Part shown: positions 2,044 through 60,840 of the stretch, one piece after another
Layout: every line of letters begins with the position of its first letter
Position numbering within the stretch: the first letter of the stretch is position 1
Assembly (NCBI GenBank): GCA_048938295.1
Contig: JBHLMI010000002.1
Location: forward strand, 7,279-71,278
Direction of reading: 5' to 3'
From: Promethearchaeota archaeon
Lineage (GTDB): Archaea > Asgardarchaeota > Hermodarchaeia > Hermodarchaeales > Hermodarchaeaceae
Length of the DNA stretch: 64,000 bases
Notes under the pieces: generated by a model
Databases searched by the model: none
What the model was told of the DNA's origin: nothing
Seen by the model: the letters and a program-made list of their open reading frames with translations, nothing else
Position numbers and translations under genes: made by a program

Positions 2044-3252
2044 CTAGTTTTCTGTAGGATTTAGGGAACAGACTTCCAAGAGAGTTTGCTGGAACTTGTC
2101 TAAGGTTTGCTGGAAGTCATCACGGACTTCAAGGTATAAATGATTGCGTTGCAGTTCCATGGTGTACAAAATTTGGACTAACTCACTTTGAAGAAAATTA
2201 GCAATTTCCCGATAAGCATCGACTAGAGTAAGCATCTGTTGGGAATATGCGCTATACTCTAAGAATAAGGAATACGCCTGCGAAACGCCTAGGAGCATAC
2301 CCTGACAATCCCGGATGTGCGATTCATAAGTCTTCAAGGACGCTCCCTGACGTATCCTGTCCCGCATCTCTAGTAATTCTAGATGCGAGCCTTCAAAGAT
2401 GCTCGAAAATAATGTGGTGTGATGGCGTTCATAGATCCACCGGGTGCGATTCGAAAGGCTGACATGCTCTTTAAAGAGTTCGTGGACAGCCTTGAAGGAA
2501 GTAATCTTTTGGTCAAATTCTTCCAGTTCTGCTGTACCAAAATATCCTGCTGACTCGGTAAGAATGAATGCAGGATGGTTCTGTGCATCCGTGACAAAGA
2601 ACTCGACCGCTTCCACTATGTGGTTTACCTTTTTGTTCAAATCTTCATTAGCTAATGCTGTTTCCACTTTTGCATATCCATCTAGTCGTAGCTGTATCGA
2701 TTCATCTGATGTTGCATACTGGAGTACATCACAAAAACGTTGCATGCTTTCACTGTAGGTTTGCTCCACGGCTTCCATCAGTTTTGGCAGGTAGTCAGCT
2801 AATCGCTTGATATTGCGTTCTACAGCTTGAAATTCATCGAGAAACTGGCGAAGAAACCAATCTACACCCTTTTGATCTAAATCATTGATCTGAATCTTTA
2901 CCCGTGGGTCACTAGATGCACGAACCATTTCAGCGAACATGCGGTGGTCAGTTATTCCGATAGATGCAAAGAGCGTTTCCATACTTCGACGAACGCTCCG
3001 ATAATAAGCATAATAAATTAATAAATTATCGACATATTCGTCAATGTATCCGATTAATGCGTTTGTATCTACTAAATGATGTTTGAGCTCAGGAGATTTT
3101 TCCTGAAAATACCGGATGAGCCGTTGATTGGCGTGTTCTTCAATTACTCTGGTTCGTTCATCATACTTCTCACTTAGGGTCAGATATTGCTCGAGGAGTT
3201 CCCAGATTAGTGCGGGTGTTTTAATTCCTGAATCTGAAGCATTTTCATTCAT
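2044..3252 (-). CDS. Hypothetical all-helical protein, first of the Rab-like GTPase neighbourhood
   Basis: 402 aa ORF with no recognisable catalytic motif and predicted to be all alpha-helical. It ends 37 nt upstream of the GTPase gene on the same strand. Confidence 0.6.
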   Translation of the reverse strand: MNENASDSGIKTPALIWELLEQYLTLSEKYDERTRVIEEHANQRLIRYFQEKSPELKHHLVDTNALIGYIDEYVDNLLIYYAYYRSVRRSMETLFASIGITDHRMFAEMVRASSDPRVKIQINDLDQKGVDWFLRQFLDEFQAVERNIKRLADYLPKLMEAVEQTYSESMQRFCDVLQYATSDESIQLRLDGYAKVETALANEDLNKKVNHIVEAVEFFVTDAQNHPAFILTESAGYFGTAELEEFDQKITSFKAVHELFKEHVSLSNRTRWIYERHHTTLFSSIFEGSHLELLEMRDRIRQGASLKTYESHIRDCQGMLLGVSQAYSLFLEYSAYSQQMLTLVDAYREIANFLQSELVQILYTMELQRNHLYLEVRDDFQQTLDKFQQTLLEVCSLNPTEN

Positions 3253-3289: not shown

Positions 3290-3838
3290 CTATTCCTTTG
3301 ACCCTTCTTTGGCAAGTTCATTAGAAAGAATAAGTTCTGCAAGCTTGTGAAAGACCTCATTGACGCCGTAATCAGTTTTCGCACTGGTTTCAAAATATTG
3401 CATTCCTTTTTGAGATGCATAAACACGCAGTTCATCTGTAGTAATGACCCTGGACTCGAGCAGGTCAATTTTATTCCCTACCAAGACGATTGGCACATCT
3501 GGACCTGAAAACTTGTGAATTTGTTCTAGCCATTTATCAACATTAACAAAGCTTTGTCGCACGGTGATGTCAAAGACCAAAAGGGCTCCTCTCGCACCTC
3601 GGTAGTAGATGGGCCTAACGCCTGCGTACCGCTCTTGTCCTGCTGTATCCCATGCTTGGAGCTTAACAATATAGTTGTTTAGGGGTAGGGATTTAACAAT
3701 GAAATCAACGCCGAGAGTTGAAATGTAGCCATCGGTAAATGTTCCATAAGCGAACCGTGTCGTGAGACTGGTTTTACCGACTTCAGCGTCACCAACGAGT
3801 ACTACTTTGAATAGATAATCAAATGCATCGTGTGACAT
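3290..3838 (-). CDS. Rab-family-like small GTPase (eukaryotic signature protein type)
   Basis: G1 GDAEVGKTS. Switch I YISTLGVDF (Rab TIGVDF-type). G3 WDTAGQERY. G4 GNKIDL (NKxD). G5 ETSAK. There are no C-terminal prenylation cysteines. Confidence 0.9.
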   Translation of the reverse strand: MSHDAFDYLFKVVLVGDAEVGKTSLTTRFAYGTFTDGYISTLGVDFIVKSLPLNNYIVKLQAWDTAGQERYAGVRPIYYRGARGALLVFDITVRQSFVNVDKWLEQIHKFSGPDVPIVLVGNKIDLLESRVITTDELRVYASQKGMQYFETSAKTDYGVNEVFHKLAELILSNELAKEGSKE

Positions 3839-3954
3839 GGGCTGGTCCCGGCAGCAGGTTTTTCTACTTCTAATTCAGTGGAAGTGTCACTTAAAGATAT
3901 GTGTCTCTAAGCAGTTTAGGTGGATTCTTGCAAAATTCTGTTTGAAAAGAATCA

Positions 3955-5115
3955 TTAGGGAGGTAGGTACTCATATCCACGGTACCCTTTACGTCGCTGT
4001 ATTTTTTGCATGTCATATAATTTTTTGAGCTCATTGGACGCAGTGCCTTTCGTGATGCCAATTTCTTCAGCTACGACTGCTGATGTGACTCGTTTCAGTT
4101 CTTTTGTTATGGTTATAATTTCCCGTTGAGTGGCGGTGAGTTCATCGAACTCTTCGAACCAAATCTCGTCTTCCTCTTCTGGACTCGTTTCAATAAATCG
4201 TGTCTGATCTATAGTACTGGGTGCTAGCGTGGTAACCGGTGGTGGACTGGGTCGCTGTTTGATGACTTGTTGCACAAATTCCCGCGTGATGCGGTCTCCG
4301 GCAGGTGTATCGTCTTGAAAGGCTAGAGAGATTATATTTTCACAGAATCGTAAAGTACTGCGTGGAAAACCACGAGTATGGAGATGAATTTCTTCAATAG
4401 CCTCAGCGTTGAAGGGCGTCAGTCCTTTTCCACCAAAATGCTGGATGCGTTCGCGGATGAGCTGCTCTGTTTCTTTGGCTGTTAGGATTTCGATGCCTTC
4501 AGGACCTTCGGTCTCTAAGGCGAATTCTAATGTGACTCGTTCCGCTATCGGTGGAAAGATACTTGTTAGAGCTCTAGAGAATCCAGTTAGGCCAGCCATG
4601 AATACTACAACGGCAGGTAAATCGCTCAGAACCCGTAACCATCGGACGGTTTTCCGCTTCTCCGTTTCGATGGTCTCTGAATCGTCATGTGTCAATGCAA
4701 GTGACTGACTATCATCAATTAGCAGGACGATCCGTTGGTTACTTTGTTGGTGGAACTCATGAACCTTAGCTGCCATTGCATCGACGAGCGTGGGAACGAT
4801 TTTATTTTTTGCCATGAAGTGGTGATTCATCAGTGAAATCAATGCGTTGCTTAATATCGATGAGTTCAAGGGTTCAGAAATGAGAAGAGGAATCATACCC
4901 TTGGATTTCGCCAGAGAATCATTTAACCACCGCAGTATGTGGGTTTTCCCGGTTCCACGGCCTCCTTCGATGAGAATGATGTTGCCGGTTCGCAGTTGAA
5001 TTGTCAAGGGAGTGAGTAATCGTTTTTGCCCAGCGAAGACTTCGGGCAGAACATCAATACGAAATGGAAAATCCGACCAGCCTAGACTCTTCAATCGCTC
5101 GTCGAAAGCGAACAT
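3955..5115 (-). CDS. AAA+ ATPase with C-terminal winged-helix domain (Orc1/Cdc6-like or archaeal-ATPase PF01637-like)
   Basis: Walker A IEGGRGTGKTHIL. Walker B VLLIDDSQ. A helical lid and a C-terminal wHTH-like segment (..ITKELKRVTSAVVAEEIGITKGTASNELKKLYDMQKI..). Confidence 0.6.
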   Translation of the reverse strand: MFAFDERLKSLGWSDFPFRIDVLPEVFAGQKRLLTPLTIQLRTGNIILIEGGRGTGKTHILRWLNDSLAKSKGMIPLLISEPLNSSILSNALISLMNHHFMAKNKIVPTLVDAMAAKVHEFHQQSNQRIVLLIDDSQSLALTHDDSETIETEKRKTVRWLRVLSDLPAVVVFMAGLTGFSRALTSIFPPIAERVTLEFALETEGPEGIEILTAKETEQLIRERIQHFGGKGLTPFNAEAIEEIHLHTRGFPRSTLRFCENIISLAFQDDTPAGDRITREFVQQVIKQRPSPPPVTTLAPSTIDQTRFIETSPEEEDEIWFEEFDELTATQREIITITKELKRVTSAVVAEEIGITKGTASNELKKLYDMQKIQRRKGYRGYEYLPP

Positions 5116-5189: not shown

Positions 5190-5471
5190 CTATGCATCAG
5201 ATGAGACACCGTCACCCATTCGGCCCAAGAAATTGTTGTAGGCAAAGGGACAGACGACTTCGATGCCACCAGTAGGATCAAAGATAACCATCTCCTTTCC
5301 GATAGGGCAGAAGAGAGCACAGTAGCCACCATCTACCAGGTGTCCATTACGTTGACACTCGAAGGTCCTAGCAGTGGGGGTAATTAGTTCCAGGACTGTG
5401 GTCGAATCAAATTGTGTAACTGCTTCTTGGAGTCGTAATTTGGGTTGAAGCGCTTTGGCTTTATCACTCAC
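5190..5471 (-). CDS. Small four-cysteine protein of unknown function
   Basis: 93 aa with Cys at C39, C51 (..DGGYCALFCPIG..), C55 and C74 (..VVCPF..). Its start overlaps the stop of the upstream 67-aa ORF by 4 nt. Confidence 0.45.
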   Translation of the reverse strand: MSDKAKALQPKLRLQEAVTQFDSTTVLELITPTARTFECQRNGHLVDGGYCALFCPIGKEMVIFDPTGGIEVVCPFAYNNFLGRMGDGVSSDA

Positions 5472-5671
5472 GCATTCCTCACTCCTCTATTTCGTTTGGC
5501 CAGTGATTCATCTTCGCGTAGTTGTGCAATCGTTCGAGCAATCCGAACACGCAGCGTCGCCGTCACCAAAGGCATTGCCTCCTTGAGCTGCTCCTCTATG
5601 CTGGGAGCTTGGAGACGGGCCATCGCGTCCGGATGAGCTCTCCCAGACGCTGACGCTTTTTCGGTTGCCAT
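5468..5671 (-). CDS. Small hypothetical protein, possibly ribbon-helix-helix-like
   Basis: 67 aa ORF translationally coupled to the 93-aa ORF. The segment ..MPLVTATLRVRIARTIAQLRED.. could form an RHH-like strand plus helix. Confidence 0.35.
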   Translation of the reverse strand: MATEKASASGRAHPDAMARLQAPSIEEQLKEAMPLVTATLRVRIARTIAQLREDESLAKRNRGVRNA

Positions 5672-6018: not shown

Positions 6019-7068
6019 TCAGTCATTTTCGCCTTCAGGAATTGTTTCCATATCAGGTTCTGTTGGATGTGCAAGAATGGATTCCTGAGAGAGATAAGTG
6101 AGAAGACGGAACCGTTCAGAGTCGAGGTGAAGGAGGATTCGTAGGTGTTCCAGGGTGAAATGCGGGGCACTTCGACGGAAGTCAAGGAAATTGGTTAATT
6201 GGGCGCGGAGGGTATCCAGCTGAAGCTCAAGCAGCTTAGCTTGGAGTGCGGGATCATCTTTGGCTAACTCTAAGGCTTGTTTTGCTAAGTCCATTCCTGG
6301 TTGGTTGAAGGGTGCGATGAAAACGGGTGATTTCTTTGTGAGATTTACGAACAGGTAGTGTTCAAGGTTTTCAGGGGTGGTAAGGCTGCGGTAGACCTTT
6401 TCGGAAACACCGAGAAGTGTGGGACGTTTACGTCGTTGATCTATCCGGCTTTCAAGAATCCCCTGAGCAGTCTCAAGATCCGTGATTCCTGGCATGTTAG
6501 GAACAGTAAATGGGAGCACGTTATCGATGGCTTCGCTGAGTTCTTCGAATTTCTTTTTCTTGGCTCCGGTAATGATGATGGCGTTTCCTACGAGGATATT
6601 GAGGAGCACTATGTCTAGTGTGTCTTCGAATACCTCAAGAATGTATTCAGTGGATGAAATCCGGCGTTGGGCGACTTGGGAGCGCTCGTTATGGGCGATG
6701 AGGGCTTCATTAATGATCGGTAGGAAACTTTGGAAGGGTTTCACATCTCCATTCCATTTTTTGATTAGCGATTCATATTGAGCATAGAAGAGGACGTTCA
6801 GGCTGTGTAGTACGGCTTGAACTTCTAGTTCGTCGGCGTTTCCATCAGCGAGACCCACAGTGATTAGCGGGTCATAGACATCATAGTGGAAGCGGTATTC
6901 ACCAGCGCCGATGGTGGAAATTTCTTCTGAGATAGCTTCATGGCCAAATTCACGGATTGCAGTGAGGAGCCCTGTGAGAAGTGTTTGTTCTAGCTTCACC
7001 ACAGGTGAGGTGTGGGAGACAAGGGTTTCGCCGGATCCTAGGAAAATGAATACCGAGTGCATTGTCAT
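6019..7068 (-). CDS. Longin-like domain protein with uncharacterised C-terminal region
   Basis: The N-terminal ~110 aa show a beta-beta-alpha-beta-beta-alpha pattern (SVFIFL / TLVSHT / KLEQTLLTGLLTAIREFG / EISTIGAGEYRFHYDVY / LITVGLADGN / helix), typical of the longin (roadblock-related) fold. The remainder is mixed alpha/beta with no motif I recognise. Confidence 0.5.
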   Translation of the reverse strand: MTMHSVFIFLGSGETLVSHTSPVVKLEQTLLTGLLTAIREFGHEAISEEISTIGAGEYRFHYDVYDPLITVGLADGNADELEVQAVLHSLNVLFYAQYESLIKKWNGDVKPFQSFLPIINEALIAHNERSQVAQRRISSTEYILEVFEDTLDIVLLNILVGNAIIITGAKKKKFEELSEAIDNVLPFTVPNMPGITDLETAQGILESRIDQRRKRPTLLGVSEKVYRSLTTPENLEHYLFVNLTKKSPVFIAPFNQPGMDLAKQALELAKDDPALQAKLLELQLDTLRAQLTNFLDFRRSAPHFTLEHLRILLHLDSERFRLLTYLSQESILAHPTEPDMETIPEGEND

Positions 7069-58620: not shown

Positions 58621-60840
58621 TTATGGAAATCCCAGACCGAGCATGATGTAGTTGGCAACTCCGCCGAGGAAGAAGGCTAAAATAATGGTTGAGGTTGCGA
58701 GGATGAGAGTATATTTCCATCGATATTCGCGGAACAATACTGCGATCGTGGCAATACATGGAATGTAAATTGTAGTTACGAGGGCAAAGACGAACATTTG
58801 ACGTGTGGTCATGAAGGTATTGATGGGACCATTCGCCAAAATAACCAAGAGTTCAACAGTGAGTTCTTTGCGAAGAACGCCGTAAACGAGGGCAGCAGCG
58901 ACTTCTGGAGGTAACCCGAGCCATCCGACCACTAGCGGTGCGGTCCATAGGCTGACCACATGGAGATAAGAGAACTCAGGGGTTGGGAAGTAAAGTAGAA
59001 GTCCTAGTACTGCACCTCCGATGATGATGAGAGGAAGCGCGATGTAAATGAATTCGCGGAATCGAAGCCAGGTCTTTTTGATGGTGGGCTTGAGTCGTGG
59101 AGCGCGTAGGGGTGGAATTTCCATGACGAGCCCATGAGAAACACCTGGGAGTGTATTTTGGAGTAAGGCACCTAGGCCAATGATAATCCCAAAAACAATG
59201 GCGAGAATGATAAAGGCTAAGAAGATCGAGGCATATAAGCCAACGGTGCCAAGAATTACTGCCAGCTGAGCTGAACAGGGAACGAGAACGACGAGAAAGC
59301 CTGCGATGAGGCGTTCACGGCGTGTGGAAAGTATACGCGTCGCTAGAACAGCGGGTACGTTACATCCCATACCTGTCAATAGGGGAATGATTGCGCGACC
59401 ATGAAGACCAAATCGGTGCATGAAGGCATCTAAGAGGAAGGCGATACGTGCCATGTATCCGGTATCTTCGAGGATAGAGAGGATGATGTAGAATGTGGCT
59501 ACGAATGGGACAGCGATGAATAACCAGGCTTGGATGCCTAAGACTAAACCATAATAGAGGATAACTTGAACGATGGTCGAGGGAAGATAGGTGGTGATGA
59601 GGTATTCTGCTGTTGGATTGATGAACACTTCCCAGAACTCACCAACCGTCGCATCGAATATAGCGCCTGCAGCAAACATAAGGAGGAGTGATCCAATAAG
59701 GACCAGAAAGGCAATTGGAAGGCCAAAAATCCGATCTGTGAGTATGGCTGAGATTCTTTCCGTGAGCGGTACACGTTTACCTTTTCCATGCTGAACCTGC
59801 TCGGTGAGATAGACGGCATATTGTTGGCGTTTTTCACCCAGTATGAGAACGATGTCTCCTTCAAATTCCTCTTCGATTTCCGTTCGAATCGTTTTCACGA
59901 GGGTAAGGGCTTCTTCGGATTCAAGGCTATTTTCAATGCAGGTGGCACACTGAGCGTATTCTTCGAGTAATTGTTGAGAAAGGATACGAAGGGGAAGGTT
60001 CATTGGGCAGAGTTGCATTTGAGTTAGGCGTTGTTCTAGTCTTTGCAGTTTTGCTTCGATACCATCAGGAAACAAGAACTTCCGCGGATTTTGTTGAGCC
60101 CCCTTATAGACACCATTTTTGGCGGCAATGCGGAGAAGGAGTTTCAGATTTGTCCCCTGGGTTGCCACGGTGGGTATAACAGGAACACCTAGCAGCGCTT
60201 CAAGTTTCTTTTCATCGATTTCGATGCCCATCCGTCGGGCTAAATCCACCTGGTTTAAGCATACGACAAGGGGGATTTTAAATTCGAGTAAGGCAATGGT
60301 GAGAAGCAGATTACGAGGAAGGTTGGTTGCATCAACGACATTAACAATGACATCGGGTGTGTCTTGTTGTAGGTATCGGAGTGTAACTTTTTCGTCTTCT
60401 GTTGAGGGACTAACGATTGTATACGAACCAGGCAAATCGACAATATCGAGTTGCACACCCTCAGTAGCCTCATCAAAATCTTTCAGTGTCCACCTCCGAA
60501 AGTGCTTACCGATTCCTCTCCAGTGTTGACGACGACCATACCTTCCTTTTCGAAAAAGTCTGTCATCCTGTTGGAATTCATCTTCCTCTATTGATTCCCA
60601 GTCTTTGAGTCCTGGACGCCATCGTGGAGAGTAGACCTCATGATAGGAGAGAAAGACCGTCCCTTCAAGGATTTCCACTGTTGTTCCTGGGTAATTGGAG
60701 ACTATAGCCCCTAGCCCCGTCCAGTAGTTGAAGATCACACTCTTTCCAACATTCGGTTGACCCACTAAGGCAATCCGTAAGCGACTCGGTTCAGGGAATT
60801 GCCTCTTATAGCGAAACTTCCGTTTGCGTGGGCCCTTCAT
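58621..60840 (-). CDS. feoB: Ferrous iron transporter FeoB
   Basis: N-terminal G-domain (IALVGQPNVGKSVIFN, DLPG), GDI-like region, two gate-motif membrane halves, 739 aa. Confidence 0.85.
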   Translation of the reverse strand: MKGPRKRKFRYKRQFPEPSRLRIALVGQPNVGKSVIFNYWTGLGAIVSNYPGTTVEILEGTVFLSYHEVYSPRWRPGLKDWESIEEDEFQQDDRLFRKGRYGRRQHWRGIGKHFRRWTLKDFDEATEGVQLDIVDLPGSYTIVSPSTEDEKVTLRYLQQDTPDVIVNVVDATNLPRNLLLTIALLEFKIPLVVCLNQVDLARRMGIEIDEKKLEALLGVPVIPTVATQGTNLKLLLRIAAKNGVYKGAQQNPRKFLFPDGIEAKLQRLEQRLTQMQLCPMNLPLRILSQQLLEEYAQCATCIENSLESEEALTLVKTIRTEIEEEFEGDIVLILGEKRQQYAVYLTEQVQHGKGKRVPLTERISAILTDRIFGLPIAFLVLIGSLLLMFAAGAIFDATVGEFWEVFINPTAEYLITTYLPSTIVQVILYYGLVLGIQAWLFIAVPFVATFYIILSILEDTGYMARIAFLLDAFMHRFGLHGRAIIPLLTGMGCNVPAVLATRILSTRRERLIAGFLVVLVPCSAQLAVILGTVGLYASIFLAFIILAIVFGIIIGLGALLQNTLPGVSHGLVMEIPPLRAPRLKPTIKKTWLRFREFIYIALPLIIIGGAVLGLLLYFPTPEFSYLHVVSLWTAPLVVGWLGLPPEVAAALVYGVLRKELTVELLVILANGPINTFMTTRQMFVFALVTTIYIPCIATIAVLFREYRWKYTLILATSTIILAFFLGGVANYIMLGLGFP

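Follow-up and report, generated by a model that had tools for sequence, protein, structure and literature searches.

An Asgard Rab-like small GTPase and its conserved gene cluster with a predicted folliculin/DENND-like neighbour

Rab-like GTPases have been reported from Asgard archaea since the first Lokiarchaeota genome in 2015, and they are central to ideas on the origin of eukaryotic membrane trafficking. Here we examined one such gene in a 64,000-nt stretch of a Promethearchaeota archaeon contig (JBHLMI010000002.1, assembly GCA_048938295.1), referred to below as the window, together with the genes that surround it. The crystal structure of an Asgard member, Thor-Rab from Thorarchaeota SMTZ1-45, has been solved (Tran et al. 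2024, PMC10933270; PDB 7EZB/7EZD/7EZE); its nearest structural neighbour is Rab1B, RabF1 to RabF5 are recognisable in it, its C-terminal Cys and extension are missing, and its intrinsic GTPase activity resembles that of Rab11B. In Asgards the same authors detected neither a REP nor a RabGGTase homologue. Liu et al. (bioRxiv 10.1101/2020.10.19.343400; Nature 2021) described a predicted operon in most Asgards that combines a LAMTOR1-like Roadblock gene with the genes of a Rab-like GTPase and of a DENN protein, and proposed a guanine nucleotide exchange factor (GEF) function for the DENN protein. No new class is described here, as the protein class is already known and the lineage already sequenced; the residual interest of the locus lies in the conserved cluster and in the cryptic folliculin/DENND-like protein encoded there, which with the GTPase makes a candidate GTPase-regulator pair.

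The gene in question is almost certainly an Asgard Rab-like GTPase of a Hermodarchaeota-type archaeon, and it occupies the following position in the window:

3290 to 3838, minus strand: Rab-like small GTPase gene, an ATG-to-stop open reading frame of 182 aa

The translated protein (MSHDAFDYLFKVVLVGDAEVGKTS...ETSAK...KEGSKE) contains G1 GDAEVGKT at residue 16, the switch I sequence YISTLGVDF (motif residue 41), G3 WDTAGQERY with DTAGQ at residue 64 and the catalytic Gln present, G4 GNKID with NKID at residue 122, and G5 ETSAK at residue 151. The G domain is thus complete by the measure of the Ras superfamily, having G1 to G5 and the switch I Thr. An earlier note on this DNA had quoted these motifs for a 182-aa open reading frame at the same position, and all of them are present, on the minus strand, which it had left unstated. 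The Pfam Ras profile (PF00071) matched with an E-value of 5.7e-57 over profile positions 1-160 of 162, followed by Roc (1.7e-33) and by Arf at just 7.6e-10, and the TIGR00231 small_GTP model gave 1.1e-27. The match to small GTPases is far above chance. A search of the window for further small GTPases found none.

When the protein was compared to PDB sequences with phmmer, 869 matches were returned and the best 60 of these were all Rab, Ypt or Sec4 proteins, Thor-Rab included and MglA absent. The outcome that the earlier note had named as overturning its reading, best matches to MglA or bacterial Ras-like families, was thus not seen. The top match was Rab1a of C. parvum (7e-53), followed by Rab35, Rab3, Rab1A/B, Rab11, Rab10 and Sec4/Ypt1. 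Thor-Rab (7EZB) matched at an E-value of 7e-43, meaning that the window protein scores higher against a eukaryotic Rab1a than against the Thorarchaeota protein. A blastp comparison with human reference sequences gave the same picture, and as these sequences were entered by hand the scores are supportive only. Bit scores were 156 for Rab1A, 152 for Rab5A, 151 for Rab11A, 142 for Rab6A and 127 for Rab7A, compared with 113 for Ran, 97 for Rap1A, 96 for RhoA and 92 for HRas, and the lowest were Rac1 (83), Cdc42 (74) and Arf1 (35). By both measures Rabs are closer to the protein than Ras, Rho, Ran or Arf are.

Using motif definitions of Pereira-Leal and Seabra, in part taken from PMC10933270, four of the five RabF motifs were located: LGVDF (RabF1), KLQAW (RabF2), YYRGA (RabF4) and LVFDIT (RabF5). 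Each differs by at most one conservative change from IGVDF, KLQIW, YYRGA and LVYDIT, and each is conserved throughout the orthogroup described below. An N-terminal FDYLFK of the Rab1/11 type is invariant in the orthogroup, and the Rab-type hydrophobic triad of RabF1, F2 and F4 is kept as F46, W63 and Y78. In eukaryotes, effectors and GEFs read this triad. The protein contains no cysteine and ends in a short, acidic tail, and none of 40 orthogroup members has a Cys within its last 20 residues. The earlier note was therefore right that a C-terminal CC/CxC is missing, and with no Cys anywhere in the protein prenylation is impossible.

These features place the protein close to both Thor-Rab and the eukaryotic Rabs. 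Like Thor-Rab, it is an Asgard single G domain of ~180 aa with a Rab1-like sequence, RabF motifs and a truncated C-terminus without Cys; unlike Thor-Rab, it belongs to a separate orthogroup limited to a Hermodarchaeota-type lineage and has a conserved gene cluster of its own. With eukaryotic Rab1/Rab35/Rab11 (Ypt1/Ypt31) it shares G1 to G5, FDYLFK, the four RabF motifs and the triad, with 44% identity to Rab1A. It differs from them in having no hypervariable tail and no CC/CXC, and therefore no geranylgeranylation and no REP/GDI cycle, as well as in the RYAGVRP of its switch II and in being encoded in a prokaryotic gene cluster.

Two results weigh against a full Rab identity. The RabF3 motif RFRSIT is replaced by RYAG[VI]RP, with only the R and an aromatic residue retained, so the RabF3-like character that the earlier note saw in the G3 region was not borne out. 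In all orthologues switch II (residues 69-77) reads ERYAG[VI]RP, which is closer to FGGLRD of Ran or RLRP of Rho and suggests that partners may be recognised differently than by eukaryotic Rabs. The other result comes from a crude tree, built by neighbour joining from 35 taxa and 180 columns with 200 bootstraps. The orthogroup itself has 100% bootstrap support there, and it falls with the Rabs of eukaryotes and with further Rab-likes of Asgards, away from Ras, Rho, Ran and Arf; the node joining it with the Rabs and Asgard Rab-likes has only 29%, which is weak support. Taken on the residues and profiles, the label Rab-like is secure. The earlier note's term "bona fide Rab" overstates the case: the best matches and four of five RabF motifs speak for it, but it is not demonstrated because RabF3 and the prenylatable tail fail and support for the Rab node is weak.

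The orthogroup comprises ~39 clusters in a collection of 5.8 billion proteins, with lengths of 176-186 aa, 64-97% identity and 35% of positions invariant. Beyond it identity falls abruptly to ~50%, where Heimdall Rab-likes and eukaryotic Rabs are found. Several orthologues are named "Rab family GTPase" by NCBI, and the orthogroup is one among the already described Asgard proteins of that name. When a single genome was scanned for each GTDB species, 12 loci with orthologues were obtained, all in Asgard metagenome-assembled genomes (MAGs). The closest is that of Ca. Hermodarchaeota FT1_005, with 96% Rab identity and 93-98% identity for the neighbouring proteins, and an identical Rab-like protein is present in GenBank assembly GCA_048941715.1. 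The window is co-linear with contigs of Hermodarchaeota and other Asgard MAGs, and both phylum labels of the matching MAGs fall within the Asgard kingdom Promethearchaeati, which upholds the earlier view of a eukaryotic signature protein in an archaeal genome. Three loci labelled Thorarchaeota, Odinarchaeota and Hodarchaeota (L006, L012 and L017) contain the same cluster with 75-94% Rab identity, and these MAG labels are probably imprecise. As a separate observation, a "Rab family GTPase" from a candidate division Zixibacteria MAG (P0051) is 48% identical and clusters with Heimdallarchaeota Rab-likes; it represents either a mis-binned contig or a transfer into bacteria.

The surroundings of the gene are prokaryotic, as the earlier note had described them. 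Coding sequence makes up about 87% of the window, genes are separated by a median of ~100 nt and five start/stop overlaps occur; on either side of the cluster lie ordinary prokaryotic genes for metabolism and transport. GC content around the Rab-like gene is 0.43, compared with 0.43-0.48 across the remaining window.

Two other identities for the protein can be weighed against these results. If the gene were a eukaryotic contaminant, or a eukaryotic Rab recently transferred to a prokaryotic contig, this would account for the 44-47% identity to eukaryotic Rab1-type proteins and for a best PDB match to a eukaryotic Rab1a, and the earlier note had itself raised contamination as the outcome that would overturn its reading. 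However, at least 20 Asgard contigs share the cluster order, the orthogroup is a tight group with a sharp drop in identity outside it, no introns are seen among the dense and overlapping genes with their prokaryotic flanks, GC near the gene is like that of the window, and no orthologue has a prenylation tail. Contamination or recent horizontal transfer is ruled out by the conserved gene order, by the structure of the orthogroup, and by the GC content and gene density, and we give it next to no probability. An MglA-type or generic prokaryotic Ras-like GTPase that is not specifically Rab-like would suit a short single-domain protein without a lipid anchor in a prokaryote, and the departure of switch II from RabF3 would fit as well. 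Set against this are the absence of MglA from the best 60 of the 869 PDB matches, the presence of DTAGQ, the lack of a Roadblock/MglB gene adjacent to the Rab-like gene, and the invariant FDYLFK together with four of five RabF motifs. MglA is not known to have the G3 Asp. On the PDB ranking and motifs we reject an MglA or bacterial Ras-like identity, and we consider it highly improbable.

The Rab-like gene lies in a same-strand cluster whose order is o349, o67, o93, an AAA_22 ATPase gene, the Rab-like gene and o402. The neighbours are:

6019 to 7068, minus strand: o349, 349 aa, with a longin domain at residues 3-103
5468 to 5671, minus strand: o67, 67 aa, conserved and basic
5190 to 5471, minus strand: o93, 93 aa, with four invariant Cys (CX12CX3C...C)
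3955 to 5115, minus strand: P-loop ATPase (AAA_22 / ExeA-like), 386 aa, with Walker A GGRGTGKT and Walker B LLIDD
2044 to 3252, minus strand: o402, 402 aa, all-helical, its start 37 nt beyond the stop codon of the Rab-like gene

This order is kept in every locus that is long enough, including those where Rab identity is 64-69%, with the exception of o402, since a few lineages do not have it. In the most divergent pair identities are 64% for the Rab-like protein, 60% for the ATPase, 51% for o349, 45% for o402 and 44% for o93. No Roadblock/LAMTOR-like domain was found among the cluster proteins. By its gene content the window cluster is a variant of the operon predicted by Liu et al.: a Rab-like gene lies near a predicted longin-DENN gene on the same strand. 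Unlike that operon, the cluster has no detected Roadblock gene, o67, o93 and the AAA_22 gene with its winged helix are inserted between the DENN-like and Rab-like genes, and the helical o402 lies downstream; the DENN-like protein of the window also escapes Pfam and is recognised by predicted fold alone.

Neither o349 nor o402 had a Pfam, NCBIfam or PADLOC match, and Pfam DENN, uDENN and Folliculin did not match o349 even at an E-value of 1. AlphaFold2 models of both proteins, built on family alignments, were confident. The o349 model (predicted local distance difference test, pLDDT, 83) has the order longin, long helix, DENN-like alpha/beta domain and helical tail, and it aligned with full-length folliculin over 277 residues. 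The predicted fold combines a longin domain with a DENN alpha/beta domain, and the architecture is predicted to be folliculin/DENND-like. Compared with the DENND1-Rab35 GEF, FLCN-FNIP and C9orf72-SMCR8, o349 is small (349 aa) and only 9-16% identical in sequence.

The o349 family comprises 39 clusters, all annotated "hypothetical". In a profile search of 1.84 billion representatives, full-length members were confined to this lineage except for one distant homologue, P0194 (locus L027, 7160-8218), and ~200 further proteins matched by the longin domain alone. Among 40 of these longin-only proteins scanned with Pfam, six matched the Fuz/Mon1/HPS1 longin-1 model, four Longin and three adaptor-sigma, and three were fused to Ras-family G domains. 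The proteins P0312, P0262 and P0313 join a longin related by sequence to that of o349 with a Rab-like G domain sharing 30-38% identity with the window protein, 38% in the case of P0312 (blastp against all 147 hits). These fusions give a Rosetta-stone hint that longins of the o349 class may work with Rab-like GTPases. Another protein in this set, P0240, has an unusual fusion of a longin-like domain (residues 2-136) to a Prenyltrans alpha-alpha toroid (PF00432, E 5e-30), which bears on the way in which lipid modification came to be connected with longin/GTPase systems. The longin beta1-beta2 loop of o349 reads SGE[TN]L in 29 of 29 family members. In the GTPase-activating protein (GAP)-type longins FLCN, SMCR8 and NPRL2, a GP motif in this loop, beside the Arg finger, is the marker of the type (PMC12290439). 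This motif does not occur in the loop of the 29 o349 members, which speaks more for a GEF-like role or one as a scaffold than for a GAP-like one, and we would expect GEF and not GAP activity of o349.

In the AAA_22 ATPase a P-loop domain is followed by an acidic linker and then, at the C-terminus, by a winged helix, and the gene is always the immediate upstream neighbour of the Rab-like gene. A PDB sequence search with the ATPase returned nothing significant. A defence-system reading of this protein or of the cluster was rejected, as PADLOC matched only P-loop or winged helix-turn-helix fragments and NCBIfam matches were far below cutoffs. For o67 and o93 no family match was found; o67 may be helical and o93 may bind metal through its invariant Cys, and o67 overlaps the start of o93 by 4 nt, suggesting translational coupling. 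The o402 family is an orphan of 33 clusters, all "hypothetical" and confined to the lineage. Its AlphaFold2 model has a pLDDT of 87, and a fold search with the model gave just generic helix-bundle matches, with no TBC, Vps9 or Sec2 fold.

The intergenic sequences were also examined for signs of transcription units, and one conserved element was located upstream of the Rab-like gene:

3884 to 3898, minus strand: conserved upstream element ATCTTTAAGTGACAC, ~45-60 nt upstream of the Rab ATG

The TTTAAG of ATCTTTAAGTGACAC ends 51 nt before the ATG, the core TTAAG (window form TTTAAGTGAC) is kept in 12 of 12 aligned loci including the most divergent, and ATCTTTAAGTGACAC is unique in the window at 0 mismatches. 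From its position and conservation it could be a TATA-box-like promoter or an operator for a unit of the Rab-like gene with or without o402, and as an operator it might serve the adjacent winged-helix protein. No T-tract was found between the Rab-like gene and o402, and the two are probably co-transcribed. Between the o349 stop codon and o67 there are oligo-T tracts and a TATA-like CTTTATATG, and because of these o349 is probably on a separate transcript. The most economical arrangement would be three transcription units, namely o349, o67-o93-ATPase and Rab-o402.

Overall, we consider it very probable that the locus is best explained as an Asgard Rab-like switch with proposed partners among its neighbours. 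With the P-loop, switch I Thr, catalytic Gln of DTAGQ, NKID and SAK all present, the protein would switch conformation between its GTP- and GDP-bound states. Having no lipid anchor of the eukaryotic type, it would be either a soluble switch or recruited through protein partners. Like Thor-Rab, it probably turns over slowly by itself and requires partners, and its nucleotide state would be set by partner proteins. The longin-DENN protein o349, encoded 2.2 kb upstream, would be the best candidate for an exchange factor, with output through o402 and/or the AAA_22-winged-helix ATPase as candidate effectors.

The specific pairing of the Rab-like GTPase with o349 is tentative, and we think it somewhat doubtful. 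That the two are a cognate GTPase-GEF pair, with the ATPase, o93 and o402 as lineage-specific regulators or effectors, is possible but on balance unlikely. Several observations speak against it. Unrelated flanking genes (M42 peptidase, PNPOx and GH35/42) are equally syntenic in related genomes, and the conserved order may therefore reflect only shared ancestry. Three genes and terminator- and promoter-like sequence lie between o349 and the Rab-like gene, which has its own conserved promoter-like element. The distant full-length homologue P0194 has no Ras-family neighbour at its locus, and the cluster is absent around the other Asgard Rab-likes examined, from Heimdall, Odin and another "Promethearchaeota" paralogue. 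Furthermore, Asgard GTPases are generally not in operons with regulators (Tran et al., PMC10933270). A functional link of the Rab-like gene to its cluster neighbours is weak.

The strongest competitor, a real possibility to which we give somewhat less than even weight, is that the cluster carries no functional meaning, with a stand-alone Rab-like paralogue whose neighbours are conserved through close kinship of the genomes. The equal synteny of the housekeeping flanks, the restriction of all three orphan families to the same narrow lineage and the dispensability of o402 in some genomes all agree with this. The single-strand, tightly spaced arrangement of the cluster genes argues in the other direction, as do the fusions of o349-family longins to Rab-like G domains elsewhere and the linkage of Rab-like and DENN genes that Liu et al. 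reported independently across Asgard phyla. A further possibility is that the Rab-like switch partners the AAA_22-winged-helix ATPase (and o402) in place of o349; gated by GTP, it would then regulate transcription or an ATPase machine and have nothing to do with membrane dynamics. The ATPase gene is always directly upstream and is the next best conserved (58-60% where Rab is 64-69%), o402 begins just 37 nt after the Rab-like gene, o349 is apparently transcribed separately, and a membrane anchor is missing. However, a known GTPase-AAA_22 system offers no precedent and no detectable homology, the matches to defence ATPases in PADLOC and NCBIfam cover only the P-loop or winged helix-turn-helix far below cutoffs, and a conserved promoter-like element separates the two genes, leaving this option quite unlikely.

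Returning to the Rab-like switch with o349 as its regulator, the locus, with three further uncharacterised candidate partners, provides a concrete candidate set for a first biochemical GTPase-regulator pairing in an Asgard lineage. If the two were a cognate pair, they would form a compact, linked prokaryotic Rab-DENN module that could be used to reconstitute pre-eukaryotic Rab regulation in vitro.

Elsewhere in the window there are M42, M24 and M1 peptidases, GH35/42 and GH38 hydrolases, an ABC transporter operon, an ADP-forming acyl-CoA synthetase, ThiI, a UbiA prenyltransferase, FeoAB plus DtxR, and RACo. Scans of the window for tRNAs and Rfam families found neither. The FeoB gene is at 58621-60840 on the minus strand, and the match between the G domain of its product and the Pfam model is split into two segments (residues 22-63 and 127-236), implying that this GTPase domain carries an insertion of ~60 aa.
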